Below are positions 40,212 through 53,104 of a DNA stretch of 64,000 bases, piece by piece. The notes below the pieces were generated by a model that did not search any database, was not told the DNA's origin, and saw only the letters and a program-made list of their open reading frames with translations. How positions within the stretch are numbered: position 1 is the stretch's first letter; each line of letters opens with the position of its first letter. The stretch comes from an uncultured Chloroflexia bacterium (lineage in GTDB: Bacteria; Chloroflexota; Dehalococcoidia; DSTF01; JALHUB01): positions 1,728,001 to 1,792,000 of the forward strand of contig OY969814.1 of NCBI GenBank assembly GCA_963703345.1, given 5' to 3'. A program made the translations under genes and the position numbers.

Positions 40212-40895
40212 CTAGCCGGCGGCGAGCTTCTGCGTCTCCTGGAGGTAGGTGATGACGGCCAGCACCCGCGGGTGAATCGACGGGTCACGGCTGGAGACGA
40301 CCTGGCTGAAGATGGCGTTGATGTGGTTCTCCACCGATTTCTCTTCCAGCACGAGCGCCCGTCCGATGGCGCCGTTGCTGTAGCCCTTCGCCATCAGGTG
40401 CAGGACGTCCATCTGGCGGGGCGTCAGCCGGCCAAGGCGAGGGCCATGGGCGTCGTTTCGGCCGGAGAGGATGGCGGGATCGAGGACGACGAGTCCGGCG
40501 GCGGCGGCTTCGATGGCGCGCACGAGGCCCGTGGCGTCGGCAAGCGATTGCTTGATGATGTACGACCAGCCGGGCGTGTTCGGCGGCGGGTTCGTCGAGA
40601 GGTACTCGCGGTCGGTCTCGGCGGCGAGGACGACGATGCCTATGTGCGGCCACTCGGTCTTGACGGCGTGTACGGCGGCGAGCGCCTGGGTGTTGCCGTC
40701 GAGGCGGACGTTGACGAGGAGGACGTTGGGCTGGAGCGAGACGCACAGGCCGCGAAGATCGTCCTTGCTCGTCGCGGTGCCTGCGACCTCCATATGCGGC
40801 TGAGTCGACAGGGCCAGGCGGAGCATGTCACGCCAGAGGCCCTCGTCCTCGACGATTAGTAGACGCAGCCTGTCGCCGTTGAGCTGTCCTTGCAT
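40212..40895 (-). CDS. NarL/LuxR-family response regulator with atypical receiver (phospho-Asp replaced by Asn)
   Basis: LLIVEDE...PNVLLVNVRL; LTPRQMDVLHLMAKGYSNGAIGRAL..EKSVENHINAIF HTH. Confidence 0.88.
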   Translation of the reverse strand: MQGQLNGDRLRLLIVEDEGLWRDMLRLALSTQPHMEVAGTATSKDDLRGLCVSLQPNVLLVNVRLDGNTQALAAVHAVKTEWPHIGIVVLAAETDREYLSTNPPPNTPGWSYIIKQSLADATGLVRAIEAAAAGLVVLDPAILSGRNDAHGPRLGRLTPRQMDVLHLMAKGYSNGAIGRALVLEEKSVENHINAIFSQVVSSRDPSIHPRVLAVITYLQETQKLAAG

Positions 40896-41134
40896 GCGCT
40901 CAGACCAGTCTCCTGAAAAGCTTCCTGCCTTCGCGGCAGAGGAATCGACGCCTGCCGTAGGATGTCCTTCCATCGATAGAGCCCGAGTCTGTTATCGGGC
41001 AGAGGACATGTATCTTTAGGGCTAAGGGACCGATTCCGACGTTGAGCCGAAAATCGCTCCTTTTCCCCTAGGCAAGCTCCCTTAAGACGAGCAGTTTCCC
41101 CGGAAACGATTCAGGTTCGTTTGGATTCAGCCGT

Positions 41135-41346
41135 GGGTGCCAGCACCCAGGTCAAATTGGGTACGGGCACCATGCTGTTCTCTCTCAGGGAGGACGAAAA
41201 AACCAGCGGCAAGGAAAAGGATTTCTGGTCCTGAACGCCGCCGGCGCCGTGTCTTCAAGAGATACGACGAATCGGCGAAGGACAGCGGAATCGAGAGTCG
41301 AGACGCTGGCAAACAGGACGCCGTGGCGGACCAGAGAATCCCGCCA
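41135..41346 (+). promoter_or_regulatory. Putative structured 5' leader RNA of the archaellin gene
   Basis: Several nested stems identified by eye (see findings). Confidence 0.45.
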
Positions 41347-41375
41347 TTAGCAAGCAATAACAGGGAGGCAAGCGA

Positions 41376-41963
41376 ATGAAGACATTAATGAGGCTCTTTG
41401 GGAGAGCCACTCACGGGGAGGATGGCATCACCGGCCTGGAGACGGCCATCATCCTGATCGCGTTCGTAGTGGTGGCGACTGTCTTTGCGTTCGTCGTGCT
41501 GAGCACAGGTCTGTTCAGTTCTGAGCGAGGCAAAGAGGCGGTCTACTCCGGACTCGCGAAAACCGAGGGTTCGCTGGAGTTGAGGGGCAGTGTCATCGCC
41601 AACACCGACGGCACGATCGTGGATAATATCGTCTTCGACCTGGCCAACGCGGCCGCCGGCGAGCCCGTCAACCTCGATCCCGCCGCTACGAGCAACAAGA
41701 TGGTCATCGCCTACCGCGACGCCAGTACCAACATCCCCAGCATCGACTGGAGCGTCACCTGGCTGGTGCCAGCAACGCCGGTAGCGAACCAGGGCAACCT
41801 GCTGTCGGAAGGTAAGCTGGCGGAGATAAAAGTCGACGTCACCGCCCAGAACCTGGGGCCCAACCAGCCTTTCGTCATCGAGGTGAAGCCACCGCTCGGC
41901 GGCACGATGGTGATCGCCAGGACCACGCCGGCAGGACTGGACACGGTGGTCGACCTGCACTAG
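41376..41963 (+). CDS. arlB: Archaellin (archaeal flagellin) with class III signal peptide
   Basis: ...GEDG|ITGLETAIILIAFVVVATVFAF: canonical archaellin N-terminus with +5 Glu; C-terminal FVIEVKPPLGG..IARTTP; GGGAGG RBS. Confidence 0.93.
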   Translation: MKTLMRLFGRATHGEDGITGLETAIILIAFVVVATVFAFVVLSTGLFSSERGKEAVYSGLAKTEGSLELRGSVIANTDGTIVDNIVFDLANAAAGEPVNLDPAATSNKMVIAYRDASTNIPSIDWSVTWLVPATPVANQGNLLSEGKLAEIKVDVTAQNLGPNQPFVIEVKPPLGGTMVIARTTPAGLDTVVDLH

Positions 41964-42052
41964 CAAGAGTTCATTGCCGCGAAGGCGGCGCGGCGACGCC
42001 AAAGTGAGGGGTCGCAGCCGGAAAAGCGCCGTCATGGCAGGGAGGCAGAAGC

Positions 42053-42841
42053 ATGGAACTCAACGCAAAGATCGCTTCTCTTGAGGACGAGGTGAAACTC
42101 CTCAAGGGAGAAGTCAAACTAATACTGAGCGAGATCCGCACGGCGATACTTGGCCAGGACAATCCCTTCGCGGAGCCTGGCCAAGGATTGCGTCTGGACC
42201 CGAGCGCTCTCGACTCGCGGCCGCCGATAAAGGTCGTGCGGGTGTCGAACGAGGCGCCTGAGGCCGAAGAGGAAGCCGAGGCGGCCACGGCGCTGCCCGA
42301 GGATGTCTGGGAGAACGAGCCGGAGGAACCGACTCCCATGCCGGAGCCGGTGGCGATGGAGAAGCCGCCGGAAGCGCGGCAGGTGGAGGAACCTCCCCCG
42401 GTCGCGAAACCGGCCATGAGCTACCCGACACCGCCGCCGCTGGTCCCGCCGCCGAAGCCGATCGCCGTTCGTCCGATTGAAGCGGCGGTCGCGCCGAAGC
42501 CGCAGGCGGTGCCGCCTCAGCCGGTCGGAAGGCCGCATTGGAGCCTGATAACGATCGCCGGTCTGGCTGTCTGGGCTGAGGAGGCCATCAAGCAGATCGG
42601 CGTGAAGCGGCTTCGCATTCTCCTGGACCTGTGCGAGTTCACGGGCGATCTCTCCCCGGACGCGAAGGAGGCGCTGCTCAAGGTATCGACTCTGGCGCAC
42701 GCGACGTTGGAGAGGAAGACGCCGCCCTCAACGAACGAGTGCCTGGTAGTGCTCTGCCAGCTCGACGCGCTTCTGCGGGGAGAGCAGCCGGCCAGCCTCA
42801 GTCTGCATGGCCCGGCTGAAAAGTGGCAGCAAACGGCCTAG
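42053..42841 (+). CDS. ArlC/D/E (FlaCDE)-like archaellum accessory protein
   Basis: N-terminal coiled coil ending ...NPF, acidic Pro/Glu linker, C-terminal helical domain (W..EAIKQIG..RLRILLD...GDLS); position between arlB and arlG. Confidence 0.65.
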   Translation: MELNAKIASLEDEVKLLKGEVKLILSEIRTAILGQDNPFAEPGQGLRLDPSALDSRPPIKVVRVSNEAPEAEEEAEAATALPEDVWENEPEEPTPMPEPVAMEKPPEARQVEEPPPVAKPAMSYPTPPPLVPPPKPIAVRPIEAAVAPKPQAVPPQPVGRPHWSLITIAGLAVWAEEAIKQIGVKRLRILLDLCEFTGDLSPDAKEALLKVSTLAHATLERKTPPSTNECLVVLCQLDALLRGEQPASLSLHGPAEKWQQTA

Positions 42842-42894
42842 GAGGGCCAACAGATCCGTCCCCCTAGGATGACGGAGCAAGAGGGGGTGCCGCC

Positions 42895-43371
42895 ATAGAA
42901 AAGGCCATTACCACTATCCTGCTAACCGTGGCGGGAATCGTAGCCGTCGTAGCGGTCGTCAACGCGGTGTTGCCCAGCGTCGACCGGACGAGCGGCGCCC
43001 TGACCTCCACGGCCAGCGTCATCGACGACCGGCTGGGCAGCCAGGTCGAAATCGTCCATGCCACCGGCGAGAACGGCGCTACCGTTGCCGACGTGTGGGC
43101 GAAGAACGTCGGCTCAACCATCATCGACCCGCTGGACAGGATAGACATCTTCTTCGGGCCGGAGGGGCAGTTCGTCCGCATCCCATACGGCGGCGCCAGT
43201 TGCAGCGCGCCTTGCTGGGAGTACAGCCTCGAGAACGACACGAAGTGGAAGCCGACCGCGACGTTGCACATCGTGATCCATCTCGGCGACGCGCTTCAAT
43301 CGAACACTGTCTATTACGCCAAGGTCGTCGCGCCAAACGGGTCGAGCGACGCGAAGTTCTTCACCGTGTAG
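42895..43371 (+). CDS. arlG: Archaellum stator protein ArlG (FlaG); apparent ATA start, first canonical start is GTG 42928
   Basis: N-terminal hydrophobic helix, WAKNVGS motif, archaellin-like beta domain, APNG near C-terminus; arlG-F-H-I-J order. Confidence 0.75.
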   Translation: MEKAITTILLTVAGIVAVVAVVNAVLPSVDRTSGALTSTASVIDDRLGSQVEIVHATGENGATVADVWAKNVGSTIIDPLDRIDIFFGPEGQFVRIPYGGASCSAPCWEYSLENDTKWKPTATLHIVIHLGDALQSNTVYYAKVVAPNGSSDAKFFTV

Positions 43372-43383
43372 GGGCGAGAAGGT

Positions 43384-43890
43384 ATGGAAACGAGCATTCC
43401 CGCCCTTCTCATCGCCGCCATTATGATGATCACCACCGTAGTCATGGCGAGGAGCGGCTACAGCTCCGTCGACCGGTTGGGACAGTCGTGGCAGGGGATG
43501 GAGCAGCGCCTGGAAGAGCGCGTACGGACGCAACTGACGGCGGTGAGCTCGCAGGTGGACAGCAGTCACGCCAACATTACGCTGCAGTTACGCAACGACG
43601 GCCAGACGACGGTGGCGGACTTCGCGCGGATGGACGTGGTGGTGCAGTACCTGTCGGAATCGGGGACGCGCTACGCCCACTGGATACCGTTCACGTCAGG
43701 GGCGCTCCAATCGAACACGTGGCGGGTGGCGTCCATCGCCAACGACACTTTTGAACCGGGCGTCCTGAACCCCGGCGAAATCTTGCAACTGGAGATAAGA
43801 ATCAATCCGCCGATGGGACCCGGCACGAACGGCTGGGTCATTGTATCAACCGAGAACGGCGTCACCGTTTCCGCGGACGTGACAGGATAG
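43384..43890 (+). CDS. arlF: Archaellum stator protein ArlF (FlaF)
   Basis: N-terminal TM, LRNDGQT, LNPGE, STENGV motifs. Confidence 0.75.
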   Translation: METSIPALLIAAIMMITTVVMARSGYSSVDRLGQSWQGMEQRLEERVRTQLTAVSSQVDSSHANITLQLRNDGQTTVADFARMDVVVQYLSESGTRYAHWIPFTSGALQSNTWRVASIANDTFEPGVLNPGEILQLEIRINPPMGPGTNGWVIVSTENGVTVSADVTG

Positions 43891-43901
43891 GAGCCAGAAC
43901 C

Positions 43902-44618
43902 ATGTACCAGGCAGCTTACGGCGAGCCGAGACGGATGGTGGCGACGGGCAACCCGGAGGTGGACAAAAAGATCGGCGGCGGCATACCGGTGGGATCGCTG
44001 TCGCTCATCGAAGGGCAGTCGGACTCCGGCAAGAGCGTGCTCCTGCAGCAGCTTGTCTGGGGCGCGCTATCGGAGAACTTCCGCGTCGCCTACTACACGA
44101 CGGAGAACACTACGCGGAGCCTGCTGCGACAGATGGAGAGCCTGGGGATGAACATCATGGACCACTTTCTCCTGGGCAGGCTCAACATTTACGTCGTGCC
44201 CTCAGCGATGTCGGCGGACGAATCGCTGACGTTCTTCAGCCGGTTGCTGGACCACGTTTCGCGGCAGGCGAGCTACGACATCATCGCTATGGACTCGCTT
44301 ACCTCATACGTGTCGCACGTGCCGGAGCGCGACACGCTGACCTTCTTCAACGCGCTGAAGAAGATCTGCGACGAGAACAAGACCCTGCTGATAACCCTGC
44401 ACGCCTACGCCTTCGACGAATCAATGTTTATCCGCATTCGGTCGATCTGCGACGCCCACCTGCGACTGCGGATCGAGGAGGTGGGCGACCAGCTCGTCAA
44501 GGTTCTGGAAGTTGCCAAGGTGCGCGGCGCCGAGAAGACGACGGGGAACGTCGTCAGCTTCGAGGTCGAGCCCGGCATGGGAATGAGGATAGTGCCGATT
44601 ACAAAAGCAAAAGCCTGA
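43902..44618 (+). CDS. arlH: Archaellum KaiC/RecA-like protein ArlH (FlaH)
   Basis: EVDKKIGGGIP, Walker A GQSDSGKS, YYTTE, MDSLT, FEVEPGMG. Confidence 0.9.
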   Translation: MYQAAYGEPRRMVATGNPEVDKKIGGGIPVGSLSLIEGQSDSGKSVLLQQLVWGALSENFRVAYYTTENTTRSLLRQMESLGMNIMDHFLLGRLNIYVVPSAMSADESLTFFSRLLDHVSRQASYDIIAMDSLTSYVSHVPERDTLTFFNALKKICDENKTLLITLHAYAFDESMFIRIRSICDAHLRLRIEEVGDQLVKVLEVAKVRGAEKTTGNVVSFEVEPGMGMRIVPITKAKA

Positions 44619-44619
44619 T

Positions 44620-46362
44620 ATGCCGAACCTGCTGCCCTTTCCCTGCGAGAACGTCGTCGACGACCACAAGAACGGCGCCGGCGACTGTGCTCTGAAGAAG
44701 CTTGTCTCCAAGGAGCTGCTGGAGCGCGCCGAGGCTTCGCCGCACCTGATGGACTACCTCCACATGGTGCCGATGGCGCTAGTCGGCGTACCCGACTTCT
44801 ATCCAGAGATCAGCCGCAAGCTGGGCGAGCTGGAGCATCCTAATTTGATCTATCCGGTCGGCGACGACATGTTCGTCCACATCTTCCCGGACACGGAAGA
44901 CCCCCGCAACTACTATCTGGCGGTCGAGCCGCCGGTGGGAATGGATGTCGAGGAACTGCTGCGGGAGGTGGAGCGACGGCTGCTGGACTACGTCGACATT
45001 CTGGCGCTGGCCCAGACGGAGGAGGAGAGGGCGCAGGCGCTTTGCGATGCCGTGGAGCAGTGCTGCACGGTAAAGGGCGGCGGGCATGCCGCCAACGGCG
45101 AGAAGAAGCACGGCGGGCACTTCCCCTTCGGCGGCGGCGGCCATGAAGCGCGAGTGCCGGTCACGCAGCGGGAGCTGAACATCATCAAGTATACGATTCT
45201 GCGCGACAAGATAGGCATGGGGGCGCTGGAGCCGCTGATCAAGGACTCGAACATTGAGGACATCAGTTGCAGCGGTATCGGTGCTGTCTTCGTCGAGCAC
45301 AAGATCTTCAAGGGGCTGAAGAGCAGCATTATGTTCCACACGCACGAGGAGCTGGACGACTTTGTGCTGCGTCTGTCGGAGAACATCAGGAAGCCGGTCA
45401 CGTTCAAGAACCCGATCGTGGACGCGGCCCTGAACGACGGCTCCCGTATCAACATCGTCTACGGCGGTGAGGTGTCGAAGCGGGGCAGCAACTTCACCAT
45501 CCGTAAGTTCGCCGAGACGCCGATCAGCATAGTCGACCTCATCAACTTCGGCGCCCTCGATCACAAGATGGCGGCCTACCTGGCGATCATCGTCGGCGAT
45601 GGGCTCAACCTGTGGGTCTCCGGCGAGACGGCGTCCGGCAAGACAACGCTGCTCAATGCGATAACGACCTTCATTCGCCCGGACGCCAAGATCGTGACGA
45701 TTGAGGACACGCCGGAGCTGCAGGTGCCACACAAGAACTGGATCCGCGAAGTCGTGCGCATGTCCGGCGACACGACGCAGGGCGCCTCCGTCGACATGTT
45801 CGGCCTGCTCAAGGCGGCTCTGCGGCAGCGGCCCAACGCCATCCTCGTCGGCGAGATCCGCGGCGAGGAGGGCGCCGTCGCCTTCCAGGCGAAGCAGACG
45901 GGCCACCAGGTGATGTCGACATTCCACGCCTCGACCGTCGAGAAGCTGATCCAGCGTGTCACCGGCAACCCGATCAACGTGCCCAAGCCCTACATCGACA
46001 ACCTCAACGTCGTGGTGATCTGCAGCGCCGTCCGGCTGCCGTCCGGGAAGCTGGGGAGGCGCATCCTGAGCATCAACGAAATTATTGGCTATGACCTGTC
46101 GTCGGACTCGTTCTCCTTTGTCGAAGCGTTCCGCTGGAATCCGGCAGACGACGTGTTCGAGTTCACGGGCAACATGAACAGCTACCTGCTGGAGAACCGC
46201 GTGGCGCCGCGGCGCGGACTAACGCCGAAGGACAAGCGTAAGATCTACCTGGAGCTAGATAAGAAGGCGGCGATTCTAGAGAAGCTGCAGCAACAGGGTA
46301 TCGTGAACTTCTATGATCTCTATCAACTCCTTGCTAAGGCGCAACGCGAAGGACTCTTCTAG
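44620..46362 (+). CDS. arlI: Archaellum motor ATPase ArlI (FlaI)
   Basis: IEDISCSG, GSRINIVY, FTIRKF, GETASGKTT, IEDTPE, LRQRP..ILVGEIRG, TGH..STFHA. Confidence 0.92.
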   Translation: MPNLLPFPCENVVDDHKNGAGDCALKKLVSKELLERAEASPHLMDYLHMVPMALVGVPDFYPEISRKLGELEHPNLIYPVGDDMFVHIFPDTEDPRNYYLAVEPPVGMDVEELLREVERRLLDYVDILALAQTEEERAQALCDAVEQCCTVKGGGHAANGEKKHGGHFPFGGGGHEARVPVTQRELNIIKYTILRDKIGMGALEPLIKDSNIEDISCSGIGAVFVEHKIFKGLKSSIMFHTHEELDDFVLRLSENIRKPVTFKNPIVDAALNDGSRINIVYGGEVSKRGSNFTIRKFAETPISIVDLINFGALDHKMAAYLAIIVGDGLNLWVSGETASGKTTLLNAITTFIRPDAKIVTIEDTPELQVPHKNWIREVVRMSGDTTQGASVDMFGLLKAALRQRPNAILVGEIRGEEGAVAFQAKQTGHQVMSTFHASTVEKLIQRVTGNPINVPKPYIDNLNVVVICSAVRLPSGKLGRRILSINEIIGYDLSSDSFSFVEAFRWNPADDVFEFTGNMNSYLLENRVAPRRGLTPKDKRKIYLELDKKAAILEKLQQQGIVNFYDLYQLLAKAQREGLF

Positions 46363-47869
46363 CGAGGTCGCGAAGGAGCGCGACAAGCTAGATAAGCCGG
46401 CCCGTTTTTTCGGTCGGCAGCCCCTGGCGTTCGACCTAGTGACGCAGCTCACCTACATGTCCGCCATTGCGACGGCTGGTATCTCGCGCGCGCAGCTCTT
46501 CGAGCACACCGCCAACCTCAGCTACAGCACGTCGGTCCTGTTCCGCCGCATTCACTGGGCAGCGCAGCGACTGAACTACGACTACGCGCAGGCCTGCGAA
46601 GTCGTCGCGGAGACGCTTGCCGACGAGAACATGCGCAGCCTGCTGCTACGCTTCGCCAGCGCCCTCGCTTCCGGCGAAGGCGAGGCGCCCTTCCTGGCGC
46701 GGGAGATGGAGGTGCAGCTCGAACTGTACGGCAAGCAATACGAACGCGACCTGGAGACGCTGCAACGGTGGACGGACGCCTACGTGGCGTTGATGGTGTC
46801 GGCGGCGCTGATCGTGGTCATCTCGCTCGTCTCGATGATGATTTACAGCATGGGCGCCGGCCTCATCGTTGGACTGGCGGTTGTGGTCATCGCGACCACC
46901 TTCATCGGCTCGTATATCGTCTACACGGTGGCGCCACTGGAGGTGAAGGCCTGCACGCTGGCCGAGTTCTCGCACGAACGGCATTTCGCCGCCCTACTCG
47001 CCAGATATGTGCTGCCGGTGGGACTGGCAGCAAGCGCCGGCGTGATGCTATTGGGGTTCGGCATAGCGATAGCGTTCATAACGATGTCGATCTTCCTCCT
47101 GCCGGTGGGCGTGCTGGCGTTCCGCGAGGACTTGCAGATCGACCGGCGGGACCGGGACGTGGCCAGCGTGCTGCGGGCGATGGGCAGCATGGTCGCGGCG
47201 ATGGGCAGCACTGTCAGCGAGGCGCTGACGCGGCTCAACCGCCGCTCTCTCGGCTCGCTGGAGCCGCAGGTGAAGCGACTGCACGTCCGGCTGCGCAACG
47301 GGCTGCGGTCGGACCTGTCGTGGTCACGGTTTGCGGCGGAGTCGGGCAGCGAGATGGTGACTCGCAGCGTGCGCATCTTCTGGGACGGACTGCGGCTGGG
47401 CGGCGACGCGGATCGCATCAGCTACCTGGCGTCGATGCTGGCAATGAAGGTCTCCCTCCTGCGGGCGAGCCGCAAACTGGTGTCTTCGACCTTCACGTTC
47501 ATCATGATCCCACTCCACGTGGCGCTGCTGTCGATCCTGCTGTTCGTGTCACAGGTGCTGGTCATATTCGGGGCGAAGATGATGGAGGTACAGGCCCAGG
47601 GGATGGACACCAGCGTCGCCAATGACGCCAGCGTATCGACGACCTTGCTTTTCAGCGCGCCCAACATGGATTTCGTCCGCTCGTTCATCGTCGCCGTCAT
47701 ACTGGTCTTGACGCTGGCCAACACTTTCGCGCCGTACGCGGCATCGGGAGGTCATCCCTATAAGCTGTGTCTCTATGGCTCCGTCATGTGCTTTTTGTCC
47801 GGCGTGGCGATGCTGGTGATCCCGGCCGTCGTGCAGGCCCTTTTCGCCAGCGTCTCAGCACCGATCTAA
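46313..47869 (+). CDS. arlJ: Archaellum membrane platform protein ArlJ (FlaJ); start uncertain
   Basis: LTYMSAIATAG, LLRFASALASGE, Y...LETLQRWTDAY, multiple TMs, second cytoplasmic domain, GGH near the C-terminus. Confidence 0.88.
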   Translation: MISINSLLRRNAKDSSSEVAKERDKLDKPARFFGRQPLAFDLVTQLTYMSAIATAGISRAQLFEHTANLSYSTSVLFRRIHWAAQRLNYDYAQACEVVAETLADENMRSLLLRFASALASGEGEAPFLAREMEVQLELYGKQYERDLETLQRWTDAYVALMVSAALIVVISLVSMMIYSMGAGLIVGLAVVVIATTFIGSYIVYTVAPLEVKACTLAEFSHERHFAALLARYVLPVGLAASAGVMLLGFGIAIAFITMSIFLLPVGVLAFREDLQIDRRDRDVASVLRAMGSMVAAMGSTVSEALTRLNRRSLGSLEPQVKRLHVRLRNGLRSDLSWSRFAAESGSEMVTRSVRIFWDGLRLGGDADRISYLASMLAMKVSLLRASRKLVSSTFTFIMIPLHVALLSILLFVSQVLVIFGAKMMEVQAQGMDTSVANDASVSTTLLFSAPNMDFVRSFIVAVILVLTLANTFAPYAASGGHPYKLCLYGSVMCFLSGVAMLVIPAVVQALFASVSAPI

Positions 47870-47884
47870 TAGTTGGAGGTTCCG

Positions 47885-48238
47885 ATGAAGCTCATACCAT
47901 TCCTAAGGTTTGGCGGCAGTCACGTCGGAGAGGATGACGTGCCTAACGCGCCCCTGCCCGTCGATCCACTGGAGGCGCCGACGGACGAAGAGCAGGAAGA
48001 GGAAGAGGAAGAGGAAGAAGAGAAGCCGGAGGAGGAGAAGCCGGCGGAAGAGGCGTCGCTTGGCGGCGACGATGACATGCTGAAGATCTTCACGGCGGTG
48101 GACGAGGAGTTCGTGGACAACACCGGCCTCACCTCGGACATGGAGGAGGTATCGGCGGATGACTTGCTCGAGGAGGCACGGGCGCTTGGGCGGGTCCTCG
48201 GCGTGCAAGTTGTCCACGAGGAGGAGCAGGCAGTCTAG
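47885..48238 (+). CDS. Small highly acidic hypothetical protein
   Basis: GGAGG RBS; poly-Glu tract; 15 nt after arlJ. Confidence 0.65.
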   Translation: MKLIPFLRFGGSHVGEDDVPNAPLPVDPLEAPTDEEQEEEEEEEEEKPEEEKPAEEASLGGDDDMLKIFTAVDEEFVDNTGLTSDMEEVSADDLLEEARALGRVLGVQVVHEEEQAV

Positions 48239-48250
48239 CGGGAGGCCTGG

Positions 48251-49249
48251 ATGAACGCCCGCCTTCGCATCGTCGCTCCCTGCTCGCTGGCGATTGCGGT
48301 GAGCCTGGCAGCAGCGTCGGTTGTGGCGGCGCACGAGCGACTGCCGGCAGCGGTGAACGTCTCCCCGCCACAGGAAGTGGCGACATCCACTGTCGCCCCG
48401 CCACCGGAGGCCACTCCGACGCCAACGCTGGGCGACGTCGAGGCAGCGCCCGCGAGTAGCGGCGGAGGCGAACCGCGGTTGTTGCCGGTCCCAGCGGAAG
48501 CGCAACCGTCGACGAACGCGCAGGTGCTGGCGGGCCCCGGCACGCTCCTTCAACAGGCGCCCACGCCGCGACCGCATCGCCCGACCATCGTCCTCGACCC
48601 GGGGCACGGCCGCGGCGACCCGGGAGCGGTGCATCATCTGCCCGACGGCAGCGTGGACCTGACGGAGGCGGAGGCAAACCTGGACATCGCGGAGAAGCTG
48701 CGTCATTTCCTCGAGGCGAAGGGATACGACGTTTACGTGACGCGCTCAGGATTCGGCAAGCCGCTGGCCGCGGGGCCGCTTTCGCAGTCGCTGATCTCGC
48801 GCGACCTGATGGACCGCGTCCGTCTCGCGGCGGCGGTCGACGGCGACGTATTCATATCGATTCACAACAACGGCTCGCCGCATCCGGCGCAGTCGGGCAC
48901 GGAGATATGGTATTGCGGCCAGCATCGATTCGGTACGGAAAGCGCCCGTCTGGCAGAGCTCATCCTCGACGCTGCCGTGCAGGGGCTGAAGGACTACGGC
49001 TATGAGACGGTACGGCGCGGTACGCAGGAGGACTCGACGGTGCATGATTCGCCGGGCTTCTGCCAGTTCCTCGTCACGCGCGAGGTGCAAATGCCGGCGG
49101 TCCTCACGGAAATCCTCTTCCTGACGAATGACGCCGACGCGGCGGTGCTCAAGGACCCGGTGGCGAGAGAGGCGGTCGCGGACCGGGTAGCGCAGGCAAT
49201 CGATACCTTCCTCCGCGAACGAGGCTCCGCGCCTCAGCAGCCCAACTGA
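48251..49249 (+). CDS. Secreted N-acetylmuramoyl-L-alanine amidase (Amidase_3)
   Basis: Signal peptide, Pro/Thr linker, IVLDPGHG, EAEANL, VYVTR, FISIHNN, AVLTEILF Zn-amidase motifs; GGGAGG RBS. Confidence 0.9.
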   Translation: MNARLRIVAPCSLAIAVSLAAASVVAAHERLPAAVNVSPPQEVATSTVAPPPEATPTPTLGDVEAAPASSGGGEPRLLPVPAEAQPSTNAQVLAGPGTLLQQAPTPRPHRPTIVLDPGHGRGDPGAVHHLPDGSVDLTEAEANLDIAEKLRHFLEAKGYDVYVTRSGFGKPLAAGPLSQSLISRDLMDRVRLAAAVDGDVFISIHNNGSPHPAQSGTEIWYCGQHRFGTESARLAELILDAAVQGLKDYGYETVRRGTQEDSTVHDSPGFCQFLVTREVQMPAVLTEILFLTNDADAAVLKDPVAREAVADRVAQAIDTFLRERGSAPQQPN

Positions 49250-49258
49250 CGAAAGGCG

Positions 49259-50335
49259 TTAGTGCGTCAAAGCGATCCGTAGCGGCGCCAGGGGTGTGTC
49301 ATCGACGCCTACGAGGTTGACTTCGTTGACATTCAGGCGCGCGCGATCGAAGAAGATGCCGTAGACGCGTTGACCGGCAGAAGCTCCGCGGTCCCAGGAA
49401 GCGAGGTAAAGCGAAGTGAGGCCCAGGATCCGCGCGCTCCCGTCGTGCGGAGATGAGACGATGGGCACGACGATGAGTCGCCCGACGCCGCCGTCGCCGC
49501 TGCCGCGCACGCATTCAGTGCGAGGCGGTTGGGCGTAGGGATCGAAGCCGGTCACATGTCCGGCGCCTGCTCCTCCATCAGGGGCGAAAGTCACGTCACA
49601 CCACTCGTTGCCGAGGTAGTCGGCCGTTCCGTCCCCTGACTCGAACTGATAGTGGACTATCAAGGCGCGGAGCGTCGCTTGATCGGCTTCGTTGCCGGGC
49701 GGCAGCAGGTGAACGACGTCGCCGGCAGACCAGATGCCGGTCTCTTCCTTTCGGCAACCGGCGGCCACCATCTGCTCGTAGGCGGCAACGCCACCGCCGG
49801 CCAGGTCGAGCGGGACCAGTGTGCCGCCGTCGCCGGAGTGGTCAGCGAGGTTGAAGGAGTAGACGCGTCCGGGCACGAAGCCGAAGTCGTCGCTGCCCTG
49901 CGCTGAGGATGCGGCGACGATGCCGAAGGGACAGACCGGCGCGCCTTTCGCCCCCACGACCTGCGCCGTCGCCGACCTTTCGATGGAAGAAACCCCCGGC
50001 AAGCCGAAGTAGTGCAGGAGCAACGTGCTGTGGTCAACGCGGGCGGTCGCAGTAACGGTATCGAGGATGCCGTCCGGGTGCTGAACAGGGCGCCAGTCGG
50101 CGAAGGTGCAGCATTCGGCGGTGGAGAGGCCGCGTTGGTTGTTCTCCAGCCAGTGATTGGCAGCGGTAAGGGCGTCGGCTTGGCTGCCGTTGATGCTAAG
50201 CTGGCGGGCAGCGGCCGTGGCCATGCCCTCCGCCTCCCACTGCGCCTTGCCGATGCGCGCGAAGTAGATGGCGAGGTCGAACATCAAGGCCGCGATGACG
50301 ACGGTGGCCATGAGCAGGAGAGCACCCTTGACCAT
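49259..50335 (-). CDS. TadG-like (Tad/Flp pilus accessory) protein
   Basis: N-terminus resembles the Tad motif (hydrophobic helix, D, Q..AE..A.AAA); Cys-containing extracellular domain. Confidence 0.55.
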   Translation of the reverse strand: MVKGALLLMATVVIAALMFDLAIYFARIGKAQWEAEGMATAAARQLSINGSQADALTAANHWLENNQRGLSTAECCTFADWRPVQHPDGILDTVTATARVDHSTLLLHYFGLPGVSSIERSATAQVVGAKGAPVCPFGIVAASSAQGSDDFGFVPGRVYSFNLADHSGDGGTLVPLDLAGGGVAAYEQMVAAGCRKEETGIWSAGDVVHLLPPGNEADQATLRALIVHYQFESGDGTADYLGNEWCDVTFAPDGGAGAGHVTGFDPYAQPPRTECVRGSGDGGVGRLIVVPIVSSPHDGSARILGLTSLYLASWDRGASAGQRVYGIFFDRARLNVNEVNLVGVDDTPLAPLRIALTH

Positions 50336-50545
50336 GGTTGCCGGACTGCTTCACCCGGAGAAGGCAGCACGAGCCGGCGGGGGCGACATCGTGACGTCGC
50401 ACCCATGGTTAGAGTCGTCCAAAAGGCGGATTCCTGTTGGGGGACGCCACCGGCTTTCTGAAGGCCGCTGAGGGATTCATGCCGTGCTATGCGCCTGTCG
50501 TCGGCGGCGACTGGCGTCAGGGTTTGGCGGTGATAGAATGAGGCA

Positions 50546-53104
50546 ATGCGAGAAAGCGCGGAGGCACGGGACTCGAGCGGAGGCGCGTCATCGGCCCCGG
50601 CGCCGCTGCGCTGGCTGGCGCTGCTGGCGGCGGCAAGCTGGCTGGGCTATCTCATCTGTAGCGGCGTGCCGCAGGTCCAGCCGGAGGTCTTTCGCGCGAC
50701 GATCGCTTTCCAGGCCGTCGCGCTGGCGCCAGCGATTCTCTACGCCGCATACCTTCTCTTCAGACGCCGACTGCCCGGCGGCTCCGGGCTGGACTGGCCG
50801 TTGCTCCTCCTGCTGGCGGCGTACGGCGTCGCGACCGTCGCTTCCATCGCCTGGAGGGTCAGCCTGGAGAGCACGCTCATCTTCCTGCTGGCGATCCTCG
50901 TCTTCTACGCGCTGAGCGACCTCGACCTGCTGGACGCGACCGGCCTGCAGGCGGCGTTCATGCTCGCGGCTTCCGCGGCGGCGGTCTGGGCGTTGTGGAT
51001 CGTCTTCGGCGACTATCGCGATTGGCTGAGCTTCGCGCAGTCAACCTCCGGCGGCTTCCACATCGGCGATCTGATCCCGCCGACGGTACCGAAGGTGCAC
51101 GACGTGAGCGACCACCCGAACATACTGGGCATGACGCTGGTGCTGGCGATGCCCTTCTACGTCCTGGCCGTCTACCGCAGGGCATCCTTGTTGCTGCGCA
51201 TCTTCTGGGGAGTCATGCTCTTCGCGGCGCTCTGGGCCGTCTTCCTCACCCTGTCGCGCGGCGCCTGGATAGGGGCGGCCGTGGCCGTCGCGCTAACAGT
51301 CGCCGGCGTCGGGGCTGTTCGCGGTTCCTGGTCGGTCCAAAAGCTTCGACGGCCTTTCGGGCAGAGACTGCGCGAAAGGCCGTCGCTCGCGGTGGCGGGC
51401 GGCGTCCTGGCGCTGCTCGTCGTCGCCCTGGCGGTCGCGGTGCTCGCGGCGCGCTGGAACGTGCGACCGCAGTGGCTTTTCCGCGAGTCGCTCTCGCCGC
51501 GGCATGACGTGTTCGACGCCGGCGTCAGCATCTTCCGCGACCACCTGCTCTTCGGCGGCGGCCCGGGCACGTTTGCGCTGCTCTATCCCCAGTACAGCGG
51601 CGAGTTCCCGATCCACGCCATCCACGCGCACAACGGCTTCCTGCAGTTGGCCGACGACACGGGCATGGTGGGGCTGGCGGCGCTGGCGGCGCTCCTCGTG
51701 ACGCTGGGCTGGATGATCTGGCGGAGCTATCGCCGCGGGAACGTGGAGCAGCGGCTGCTGGCGGTTACGTGCGCGGCGGCGCTGATCGGTTTCGCCGTGC
51801 ACAATCTCGCCGACGCGGCGAACATCTGGAAGGCGACGCTCGTCGCCGTGGCGGCGGTTACGGCCATCGTCGTAAAGAACTACTGCTCGCTGGCGCCGCG
51901 CGCCGAGGCGAAGGCGATACGCTTGCCTCCCTGGGCCGGTCGCCTGCGCTCGCTGCTGCCGCGCGGCCTGCTGGTGGTCGCCTTCGTCGCCCTGCCGCTC
52001 GTCTGGCTGCGCATTGACGTCGCTCATCGCCACTACTCGCACAGCCTCAGCCAGCTCGGGATGGGACACATCGCGCAGGCGATCAGCGAGGGGCAGCAGG
52101 CGGTGGATGAGGACCCTGATTTCGCGATCTATCAGTTGCAGCTTGGCGTCGCGGAGGGAACGGCCGTGATGCAGGGAGAGTTGACTTCGCCGGAGCCGGC
52201 GATCGCCAGCCTGAAACGAGGGCTGGAGCTCGAGCCGCGAAGCGCCATCGGCTACGCCAACCTGGCGCGGATGTTCGTCGTCGCCGGGCGCAACAGCGAG
52301 GCGCGCGACGCCGCGCTCCAGGCGCGTCGCTACGCCGGCGCCGACGCGACGGTGCTTCTGGCGGCCGCCGGCGTCCTGGAAGACGTGGGCGCGCCGGAGG
52401 CCGTGCCGACCTACGGCATGGCGCTCTCGCGGATGCCGTCGCTTGGTGATTCGCAGTTCTGGCAGGGAAGCGACTTCCGCCGCTCCCACTACAAGGAGAT
52501 CGTCGGGAACTCACTCATCTCACTCAGCCCCTGCGCGACGGGGACGCTTGTTGCGCGGGCCGGCAACGGCGGCTCCCAGGCGACGACGCTGGGGCTCGCG
52601 GAGCTGCGGGACGGCTGCCGCGACGCCGTCGCCGCCGACCCGGCCAGCCTGGACGCGCGCGTCAACCTGGCGGAGATATCGATGGCGCTGAATGACTACC
52701 AGACCGCCTACGACCTGCTGAGCTACGTGACGAGCCGTCAGCCGGACCTGGCGCGGGCGCGCACCGTCATGGGCGAGTGGTACGCAGCGCAAGGCGACGT
52801 CACCCGAGCGCGCGCTGAATGGACGACGGGCGGTCAGCTCGGCGAGGCGGAGTCGCTGCTATTGCTGGGCGATTCGTATCCGGCGAAGCAGGTGCCGCCG
52901 GAGGTCGTGAAGCGTCTAGGCGAACTGGCGCCCGCCGTCGCGGAGGGGCCGCGCGACTATCTGATCGGCTACCTGTACTATCGAATGCGTTTCTCGCGGG
53001 AGTCGTCGCCTATCATACTGCTGCCGGGCGAGTGGCAGGACGCGATCCCGGGCCTGTACGACCGGATACAGCAGGCGCTCGCGCGCTGGCAGCCGGCCGG
53101 CTAG
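50546..53104 (+). CDS. O-antigen ligase (Wzy_C)-like polytopic membrane protein with C-terminal TPR-like region
   Basis: HPNILG, TLSRGAWIG, HLLFGGGPGTF, HAHNGFLQ..DTG..GL; TPR-like helices. Confidence 0.8.
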   Translation: MRESAEARDSSGGASSAPAPLRWLALLAAASWLGYLICSGVPQVQPEVFRATIAFQAVALAPAILYAAYLLFRRRLPGGSGLDWPLLLLLAAYGVATVASIAWRVSLESTLIFLLAILVFYALSDLDLLDATGLQAAFMLAASAAAVWALWIVFGDYRDWLSFAQSTSGGFHIGDLIPPTVPKVHDVSDHPNILGMTLVLAMPFYVLAVYRRASLLLRIFWGVMLFAALWAVFLTLSRGAWIGAAVAVALTVAGVGAVRGSWSVQKLRRPFGQRLRERPSLAVAGGVLALLVVALAVAVLAARWNVRPQWLFRESLSPRHDVFDAGVSIFRDHLLFGGGPGTFALLYPQYSGEFPIHAIHAHNGFLQLADDTGMVGLAALAALLVTLGWMIWRSYRRGNVEQRLLAVTCAAALIGFAVHNLADAANIWKATLVAVAAVTAIVVKNYCSLAPRAEAKAIRLPPWAGRLRSLLPRGLLVVAFVALPLVWLRIDVAHRHYSHSLSQLGMGHIAQAISEGQQAVDEDPDFAIYQLQLGVAEGTAVMQGELTSPEPAIASLKRGLELEPRSAIGYANLARMFVVAGRNSEARDAALQARRYAGADATVLLAAAGVLEDVGAPEAVPTYGMALSRMPSLGDSQFWQGSDFRRSHYKEIVGNSLISLSPCATGTLVARAGNGGSQATTLGLAELRDGCRDAVAADPASLDARVNLAEISMALNDYQTAYDLLSYVTSRQPDLARARTVMGEWYAAQGDVTRARAEWTTGGQLGEAESLLLLGDSYPAKQVPPEVVKRLGELAPAVAEGPRDYLIGYLYYRMRFSRESSPIILLPGEWQDAIPGLYDRIQQALARWQPAG

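Follow-up and report, generated by a model that had tools for sequence, protein, structure and literature searches.

We analyzed the last gene of an archaellum (arl) cluster in an uncultured bacterium of the Dehalococcoidia. The gene encodes a peptidoglycan amidase and lies in the window, a stretch of 64,000 nucleotides (nt) from contig OY969814.1 (assembly GCA_963703345.1). A gene for a wall-acting enzyme adjoins the arl cluster in 62 of the 68 genomes of the order that contain arlJ, the gene for the platform protein. This linkage is conserved and is not due to chance. What is conserved is not the amidase itself but a gene slot, in which wall-acting domains are interchangeable. Our preferred explanation, which we consider moderately probable, is that a dedicated and likely membrane-tethered enzyme opens the wall locally for the archaellum.

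An amidase gene at the end of the cluster

On the + strand of the window, the gene order is arlB, a CDE-like open reading frame (ORF), arlG, arlF, arlH, arlI, arlJ, an acidic ORF, and the amidase. The two genes that follow arlJ and the parts of the amidase are:

47885..48238, + strand: acidic ORF of 117 amino acids with a conserved C-terminal motif (D-L-L-x-x-F ... L-x-D-V ... L-L-x-E)
48251..49249, + strand: N-acetylmuramoyl-L-alanine amidase gene, 332 amino acids, Pfam Amidase_3 (PF01520)
48269..48325, + strand: hydrophobic helix (residues 7-25), signal peptide or membrane anchor; mean Kyte-Doolittle hydropathy 2.25, no lipobox; helix at residues 2-28 in the structural model
48326..48580, + strand: linker of about 84 amino acids, rich in Pro, Ala, Ser, Thr, Glu, and Gln, with low predicted local distance difference test (pLDDT) scores
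48587..49204, + strand: Amidase_3 domain with H119 (48605), E139 (48665), H205 (48863), and E287 (49109)

The initial annotation, made from the sequence of the window alone, had the amidase following arlJ and the acidic ORF on the same strand with gaps of 15 and 12 nt, and the coordinates confirm this: arlJ ends at 47869, the acidic ORF runs from an ATG at 47885 to 48238, and each gap contains a Shine-Dalgarno-like site (GGAGG at 47875-47879 and GGGAGG at 48240-48245). It also saw no obvious terminator, and we found no terminator-like site on the + strand between arlB and the amidase stop. A scan of 40500-50800 identified no sigma70-type promoter; this result carries little weight, as none was identified ahead of arlB either.

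Judging from its sequence and its predicted fold, the protein is a true Amidase_3. The match spans residues 113-318 and positions 1-173 of the 174 in the profile (E = 4.8e-38; 131 bits, compared to a cutoff of 27). The zinc ligands (H119, E139, and H205), which had been described as intact, are all present, as is the catalytic E287; across 91 aligned proteins, the three ligands are invariant and the position of E287 is conserved in at least 90%. The AlphaFold2 model (pLDDT 85.8) aligns to CwlV (1jwq) with a template modeling (TM) score of 0.91 by target length (Foldseek E = 2.5e-16), and TM scores by target for CwlV, CwlD, and LytH range from 0.87 to 0.91. The protein scores 95.7 bits against the CwlD equivalog model (TIGR02883), which is below the cutoff of 221.55. 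A pair of cysteines, C222 and C271, is specific to the subfamily of arl-linked amidases. All of the arl-linked copies with a readable start have a hydrophobic N-terminal helix, as judged by hydropathy; in the window's protein, which the initial annotation called secreted, this helix could be either a signal peptide that is cleaved off or an anchor that stays in the membrane.

The amidase gene is under purifying selection: the ratio of nonsynonymous to synonymous substitution rates (dN/dS) for its catalytic domain was 0.07-0.20 in 9 pairs, which is similar to that of arlJ (0.08-0.16). It is the sole Amidase_3 match in the host genome. Its stop codon lies 9 nt from a convergent gene (49259-50335, - strand), which encodes a protein of 358 amino acids with an N-terminal hydrophobic segment and no Pfam match. 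This ORF, which we take to resemble a TadG-type pseudopilin, is convergent on the amidase in nine close relatives from the same family (f1).

A conserved slot with interchangeable enzymes

We sampled 93 genomes from the order: 68 contain arlJ, 54 have a Pfam Amidase_3 match, and all 93 encode a penicillin-binding protein (PBP). The slot beside the arl cluster holds an active amidase in 43 genomes, a dead amidase with an M23 domain in 14, and an SLT domain, with or without M23, in 5. In the 43, the Amidase_3 domain starts 705-1115 bp past arlJ on the same strand; by family, these are 13 of 17 arlJ-positive genomes in f1, 1 of 2 in f2, 29 of 31 in f3, none of 6 in f4, and none of 12 in f5. The catalytic residues are intact in all 21 linked amidases that we checked.

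The other two forms resemble the window's protein outside of the catalytic part. In five f1 or f2 genomes, the gene at the same position encodes the same anchor and linker, then an amidase domain without the three zinc ligands, and then a C-terminal M23 domain; the dead-amidase form is 29% identical to the window's protein over 331 columns (E = 2e-16). In nine f5 genomes, the dead-amidase and M23 gene lies upstream of arlB and follows the acidic ORF wherever our local profile detects that ORF; one of these copies (in G087) is split over two frames. The assignment of the dead domain to the amidase fold rests on sequence and predicted secondary structure, because the fold search with the model of this form gave only M23/LytM-type matches and one phage ejectosome chain among the matches listed. 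In five f4 genomes, the same type of N terminus and linker motif is followed by an SLT domain, with M23 as well in four; the Glu-Ser motif of SLT is present in all five linked copies. The linker motif itself (x-x-P-x-E-A-x-P, around residues 77-88) is common to all three forms. Each slot form in the order appears to keep at least one live wall-cutting domain.

The reading that 25 of the arlJ-positive genomes lack the gene was rejected: the Pfam search for amidases had missed the dead-amidase and SLT forms. In each of the six genomes with no gene in the slot (G014, G015, G063, G073, G077, and G078), the contig breaks off on the side of the locus that matters, and for G014 and G063 the expected gene was found on another contig.

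The linkage has also survived rearrangements. In f3, the amidase stays behind arlJ although arlH and arlI have left the cluster, and in f5, the enzyme gene and the acidic ORF have moved together to upstream of arlB. Further out, 44 loci gave 21 sequence clusters for the first gene read at over 1.15 kb beyond arlJ (in f5 loci, this gene does not adjoin the enzyme). For the host genome, which has about 9 genes with Amidase_3, M23, SLT, or LysM domains, the chance of at least one lying in a 7-kb flank is about 0.03, compared to the observed 62 of 68. The synteny of Amidase_3 with arlJ that the initial annotation proposed to examine is thus conserved as a linkage, with the correction that what is kept is the slot.

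Three other features of these loci were seen. The arlH and arlI genes of f3 (L123, L125, L172, and other loci) are divergent and about 2.4 kb upstream of arlB in three loci, and elsewhere they are outside the fetched stretch. In four f4 loci (L051:4718-5155:-, L052:5079-5516:-, L054:4946-5383:-, and L055:10433-10870:+), the SLT gene is followed on the same strand by a gene for a membrane protein of 145 amino acids, with a GOLD-like Pfam match in the one copy scanned. In G089 (L057/L133), there is no match to arlB or the CDE-like ORF between the dead-amidase and M23 gene and arlG, and arlH and arlI are in pieces; this cluster is possibly decaying or misassembled.

Slot genes are distinct from other amidases of the order

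The dead-amidase form occurs in 14 of the 93 genomes, all of which contain arlJ. The SLT form, which we searched for in f4 only, is in all 6 arlJ-positive and none of 10 arlJ-negative genomes, and this split runs inside three genera. The arlJ-negative genomes that we examined yielded no gene of the slot type. An Amidase_3 match is present in five genomes without arlJ: three of these matches belong to a branch of unlinked amidases, one is of another type, and the fifth is in G025, which enters only our tallies of 93 genomes and of 25 arlJ-negative genomes and about whose sequence we make no claim.

An amidase tree with 45 rows (21 of 43 linked, 12 of 14 dead, and 12 of 18 unlinked) placed 11 unlinked amidases on one separate branch (99/95). 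Linked and dead forms share a W-x-C motif and a second cysteine, and the 11 unlinked amidases lack W-x-C. Most of the unlinked amidases have a lipobox and a short linker (lipoproteins). The dead forms are on a long branch, and the tree leaves their joining point unresolved. Members of this order can divide without a live Amidase_3, because 39 of the 93 genomes, all with PBPs, have no Pfam Amidase_3 match.

Archaellated genomes outside the order

Among 301 genomes sampled from the class, 45 more contain arlJ, with 46 loci between them; we fetched every locus. Eleven of these genomes contain murD and several PBPs; the other 34 lack murD, and 33 of them lack PBPs as well. Across the phylum, 7 of 401 sampled genomes contain arlJ and all 7 are from this class; this sample reached no Anaerolineae loci.

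A gene with LysM or M23-like domains adjoins the arl cluster in 9 of the 11 genomes with murD and PBPs, and the loci of the other two are cut upstream. In two f52 genomes, the cluster ends with a single polypeptide that combines the acidic motif, a transmembrane helix, LysM, and M23. Four f45 genomes have a divergent M23-like gene just before arlB; these have no Pfam match and were recognized by motifs and by a local profile for which two of them served as seeds. Among the 35 loci of the 34 genomes without murD, some of which are cut short, our local profiles, which were seeded from walled loci, found no adjacent LysM- or M23-type gene, and neither did a Pfam scan of 55 of the 148 unlabeled ORFs of 29 of these loci.

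Other genes lie near the arl clusters of these genomes. In the wall-less family f16 (L073:3570-5204:-, L074:3573-5162:-, L098:3632-5200:-, and L099:11296-12873:+), an exported IPT/TIG-Ig protein of 520-600 amino acids follows the acidic ORF; it is a candidate anchor to a surface layer made of protein. Family f44 has genes for AglB/STT3-like oligosaccharyltransferases upstream of its arl clusters (L097:12784-14307:- and L102:1289-3103:+), and DUF5658 genes lie beside several wall-less arl loci.

The acidic ORF

The acidic ORF has no Pfam or NCBIfam match, and its Atlas matches were below 0.9 and unnamed. In a profile search, the few named matches had only Dehalococcoidia or Chloroflexi names. 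Its dN/dS was 0.09-0.34. We considered whether it is specific to walled hosts and rejected this, as it also follows arlJ in most of the murD-negative loci. Because it follows arlJ with or without a wall, the acidic ORF is a general accessory of arl loci in the Dehalococcoidia.

In other families, the acidic motif is fused to wall domains: to a transmembrane helix, LysM, and M23 in five loci, and to a transmembrane helix and LysM in one. The motif comes before the membrane helix and the wall domains come after it. A search for related loci returned six, of which two had already been counted, three were new and have the fusion with LysM and M23, and one shows nothing of the kind. In f45 (L084:4953-6017:-, L089:4941-6047:-, L082:10235-11149:+, L083:5198-6022:-, and L101:680-1423:-), the motif ends a membrane protein with an uncharacterized domain between two hydrophobic segments and no Pfam match.

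The host genome and its archaellum cluster

The window is part of a genome on a single contig of 2.28 Mb (95.9% complete), and the window's named homologs are from Dehalococcoidia. The wall-opening proposal would have fallen if the host had no peptidoglycan pathway. Instead, murB, murC, murD, murE, murF, mraY, ftsW, ddl, mrdA, mreB, and ftsZ are all above the NCBIfam cutoffs (this check left out murA, murG, and murJ), and the genome has a dcw cluster and an mreB-mrdA cluster. No Flagellin_N match, the one family searched for a bacterial flagellum, was found in this 95.9% complete contig. The other genes of the archaellum region are:

40212..40973, - strand: LuxR/NarL-type response regulator, divergent from arlB (Pfam Response_reg, below cutoff, and GerE)
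41376..41963, + strand: arlB, archaellin (Pfam Arch_flagellin, E = 1.8e-22)
42053..42841, + strand: ORF between arlB and arlG, presumed ArlCDE-like from its position, with homologs in most loci
42928..43371, + strand: arlG, stator protein, named from its position (Pfam Arch_flagellin, E = 3e-7)
43384..43890, + strand: arlF, stator protein (Pfam Arch_flagellin; FlaF_Ig-like below cutoff)
43902..44618, + strand: arlH (NCBIfam FlaH and ArlH above cutoff)
44620..46362, + strand: arlI, motor ATPase (NCBIfam NF058587, 648 bits compared to a cutoff of 550)
46313..47869, + strand: arlJ, platform protein (NCBIfam ArlJ models, E = 7.5e-127, below their cutoffs, which are for archaeal equivalogs)

Because arlB, arlH, arlI, and arlJ are in one locus and arlG precedes arlF, the cluster is of the arl2 type; the start codon of arlG may be slightly upstream of 42928. 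The CDE-like ORF has no Pfam or NCBIfam match, and clusters from Chloroflexota are reported to hold arlCDE homologs (PMC12488501). The response regulator, which has LuxR-type homologs within the fetched arl loci of 19 genomes from f1-f3, is a candidate regulator of the cluster. A lone second archaellin, 82% identical to arlB, is 266 kb away (G000:C1:1503351-1503935; L154:5352-5939), after what appears from its sequence to be a suf-type cluster.

How the slot gene might act

Our preferred explanation shares with the initial annotation the proposal that the amidase opens the wall for the archaellum. The amidase would be transcribed with the arl cluster, exported, and probably kept tethered outside the membrane, where its long flexible linker would let the catalytic domain reach the wall. 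By removing stem peptides, it would cause a local loss of cross-links, and the gap would give the filament and the ArlG/ArlF stator room to cross. The M23 and SLT forms would do the same job by cutting other bonds. The acidic ORF is the likeliest recruiter of the enzyme to the motor, because in other families its motif is joined to a membrane helix with LysM and M23 behind it. Since the fusions put the motif before the helix and the wall domains after it, the acidic protein may be a cytoplasmic link to the motor, encoded separately from the enzyme in the host genome.

The conserved linkage and the wall genes of the host support this proposal. Opening of the wall is still something that we infer, because the LysM-only forms of f25 point to anchoring and because a role in cell separation would fit as well.

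Several observations weigh against our explanation. First, the arl cluster of three f25 genomes ends with a transmembrane helix and LysM, and no cutting domain was found in that gene, which means that hydrolysis does not accompany every arl cluster. Second, the activity of M23 in the dead-amidase forms is uncertain because its motif, H-x4-D (HPLGID), exceeds the canonical HxxxD by one residue. Third, G073 (96% complete and arlJ-positive) has no match to the dead-amidase form anywhere and is possibly a true exception to the linkage, and in locus L147, whose host may or may not have a wall, the 3.3 kb that follow the acidic ORF are empty of such genes. Fourth, the support is all comparative and kin genomes are not independent in our counts; the absence of the gene from wall-less genomes is expected under any wall-related role, and a single deletion or a single missing contig would by itself remove adjacent genes together. 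Finally, a strict need for cutting is at odds with the flagellar precedents, where hydrolysis is helpful without being necessary (PMC13584718 and PMC12153297). By analogy with FlgJ, the enzyme may make assembly more efficient and yet be dispensable.

We also considered whether the gene is mainly a wall anchor, with an outer domain that binds peptidoglycan, holds the motor against torque, and replaces ArlF's grip on the surface layer, so that cutting is secondary. The LysM-only proteins of f25, the retention of a dead amidase fold in 14 genomes, and the fusions of the acidic motif to a helix, LysM, and M23 all favor an anchor. PilO-LysM has been proposed as an anchor in Litorilinea aerophila (PMC13319060), and no match to PilN or PilO (PF05137 or PF04350) was found anywhere in the host genome; divergent copies could escape notice because both profiles matched only 2-3 of 14 control genomes. 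However, the window's amidase has no recognized binding domain, its catalytic residues are intact in 21 of 21 linked copies, and M23 has been added where the amidase is dead, or SLT in f4, so that every form in the order has a cutting domain. We consider it unlikely that anchoring is the main role.

Another explanation, which we view as about as unlikely, is that the gene encodes an autolysin that is expressed along with the motility genes and separates cells or loosens the wall generally as cells become motile, not at the motor. It would account equally well for the operon linkage, the co-loss, and the exchangeable catalysts, and it fits with this being the sole Amidase_3 of the host. There are parallels: sigma-D of Bacillus subtilis drives autolysin and flagellar genes together (PMC13277317), and Litorilinea filaments shorten as they become motile (PMC13319060). 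It leaves unexplained why the acidic motif is fused to a helix with LysM and M23 (five loci) or LysM (one locus) and why the acidic ORF and the enzyme moved together in f5.

It is very improbable that this is a housekeeping amidase that came to lie next to the arl cluster by chance and was inherited with it: the host has no second Amidase_3, and close relatives in f1 conserve other nearby genes too, such as the convergent ORF, but this idea is largely refuted by the persistence of the linkage through two rearrangements while the next gene changes, by the lack of slot-type genes in the arlJ-negative genomes examined, and by the separate lineage of lipoprotein amidases elsewhere in the order.

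Returning to local opening of the wall by a dedicated enzyme, we tentatively suggest a broader idea, which we think is possible although the odds do not favor it. The acidic ORF and the wall enzyme might be two halves of one trans-membrane adaptor: the motif would dock on the motor in the cytoplasm, and the outer module would cut and grip peptidoglycan, replacing the role of the surface layer for ArlF. Such adaptors would have been built repeatedly in walled Dehalococcoidia from amidase, M23, SLT, and LysM parts.

Comparison to known systems

SltF, VirB1, and TcpG are wall hydrolases that are dedicated to particular machines. So are FlgJ (PMC13584718), TagX of the Acinetobacter type VI secretion system, which is membrane-associated (PMC5061870), and EssH of the type VIIb secretion system (PMC13059805). 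As in the host, the hydrolase gene is inside the cluster for a trans-envelope machine, and catalytic folds differ across lineages; the slot gene is likewise encoded in and inherited with its cluster in walled hosts (62 of 68). The host differs in that the machine is a type IV filament of archaeal origin and the catalyst is an Amidase_3. The likeness is functional, and we claim no relation of sequence or fold.

Among characterized amidases, CwlV (1jwq), CwlD (7rag), LytH (7tj4), AmiA (8c2o), and AmiC (4bin) share the zinc and catalytic residues and the fold with the window's protein (the TM scores above are for the first three). The window's protein is just 21-29% identical to them, lacks AMIN and CWB2 domains, and has the arl-linked cysteine pair. 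Judging from alignment ends, the stretch that corresponds to the regulatory insert of AmiA is about 27 residues shorter. The sigma-D autolysins of B. subtilis (LytC and others) are also amidases tied to a motility program (PMC13277317). In the host, unlike in B. subtilis, the amidase is encoded by the final cistron of the cluster, paired with that for an arl-associated acidic protein. To our knowledge, the lyt genes are not inside a flagellar structural operon.

Bacterial archaella have already been published (PMC12488501), and PilN with PilO-LysM was proposed for that of L. aerophila (PMC13319060). L. aerophila resembles the host in having an arl2-type cluster (arlB, CDE-like, G, F, H, I, and J) in a walled bacterium with an adjoining wall-related accessory. 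It has PilN and PilO-LysM, whereas the host has no match to either and its accessory is a hydrolase. In 2026, the way in which archaella are anchored in Chloroflexota that make peptidoglycan but lack PilO and PilN was described as unknown (PMC13319060). The initial annotation did not recognize the module as previously described, and we did not find a wall hydrolase dedicated to the archaellum in the literature that we searched; figures, subscription papers, and two bioRxiv versions were outside of this search, and a locus diagram could show the gene. The term "amidase" does not occur in the main texts of PMC12488501 and PMC13319060, and in their searchable supplements (one image-only file could not be searched) it occurs only in the Litorilinea proteomics table, and not at arl loci.

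A dedicated hydrolase for a trans-envelope machine is an old principle; its use for the archaellum is what we did not find in that literature. We know of no cultured carrier, which limits direct testing. The locus does offer named genes and point mutants to test, for the whole order and three further families. One slot that holds three unrelated wall-cutting folds is a clear case of a horizontally acquired machine recruiting the enzymes of its hosts. If the adaptor idea is true, then the adaptor would be the step that made it possible for a rotary motor of archaea to function in a wall of murein.
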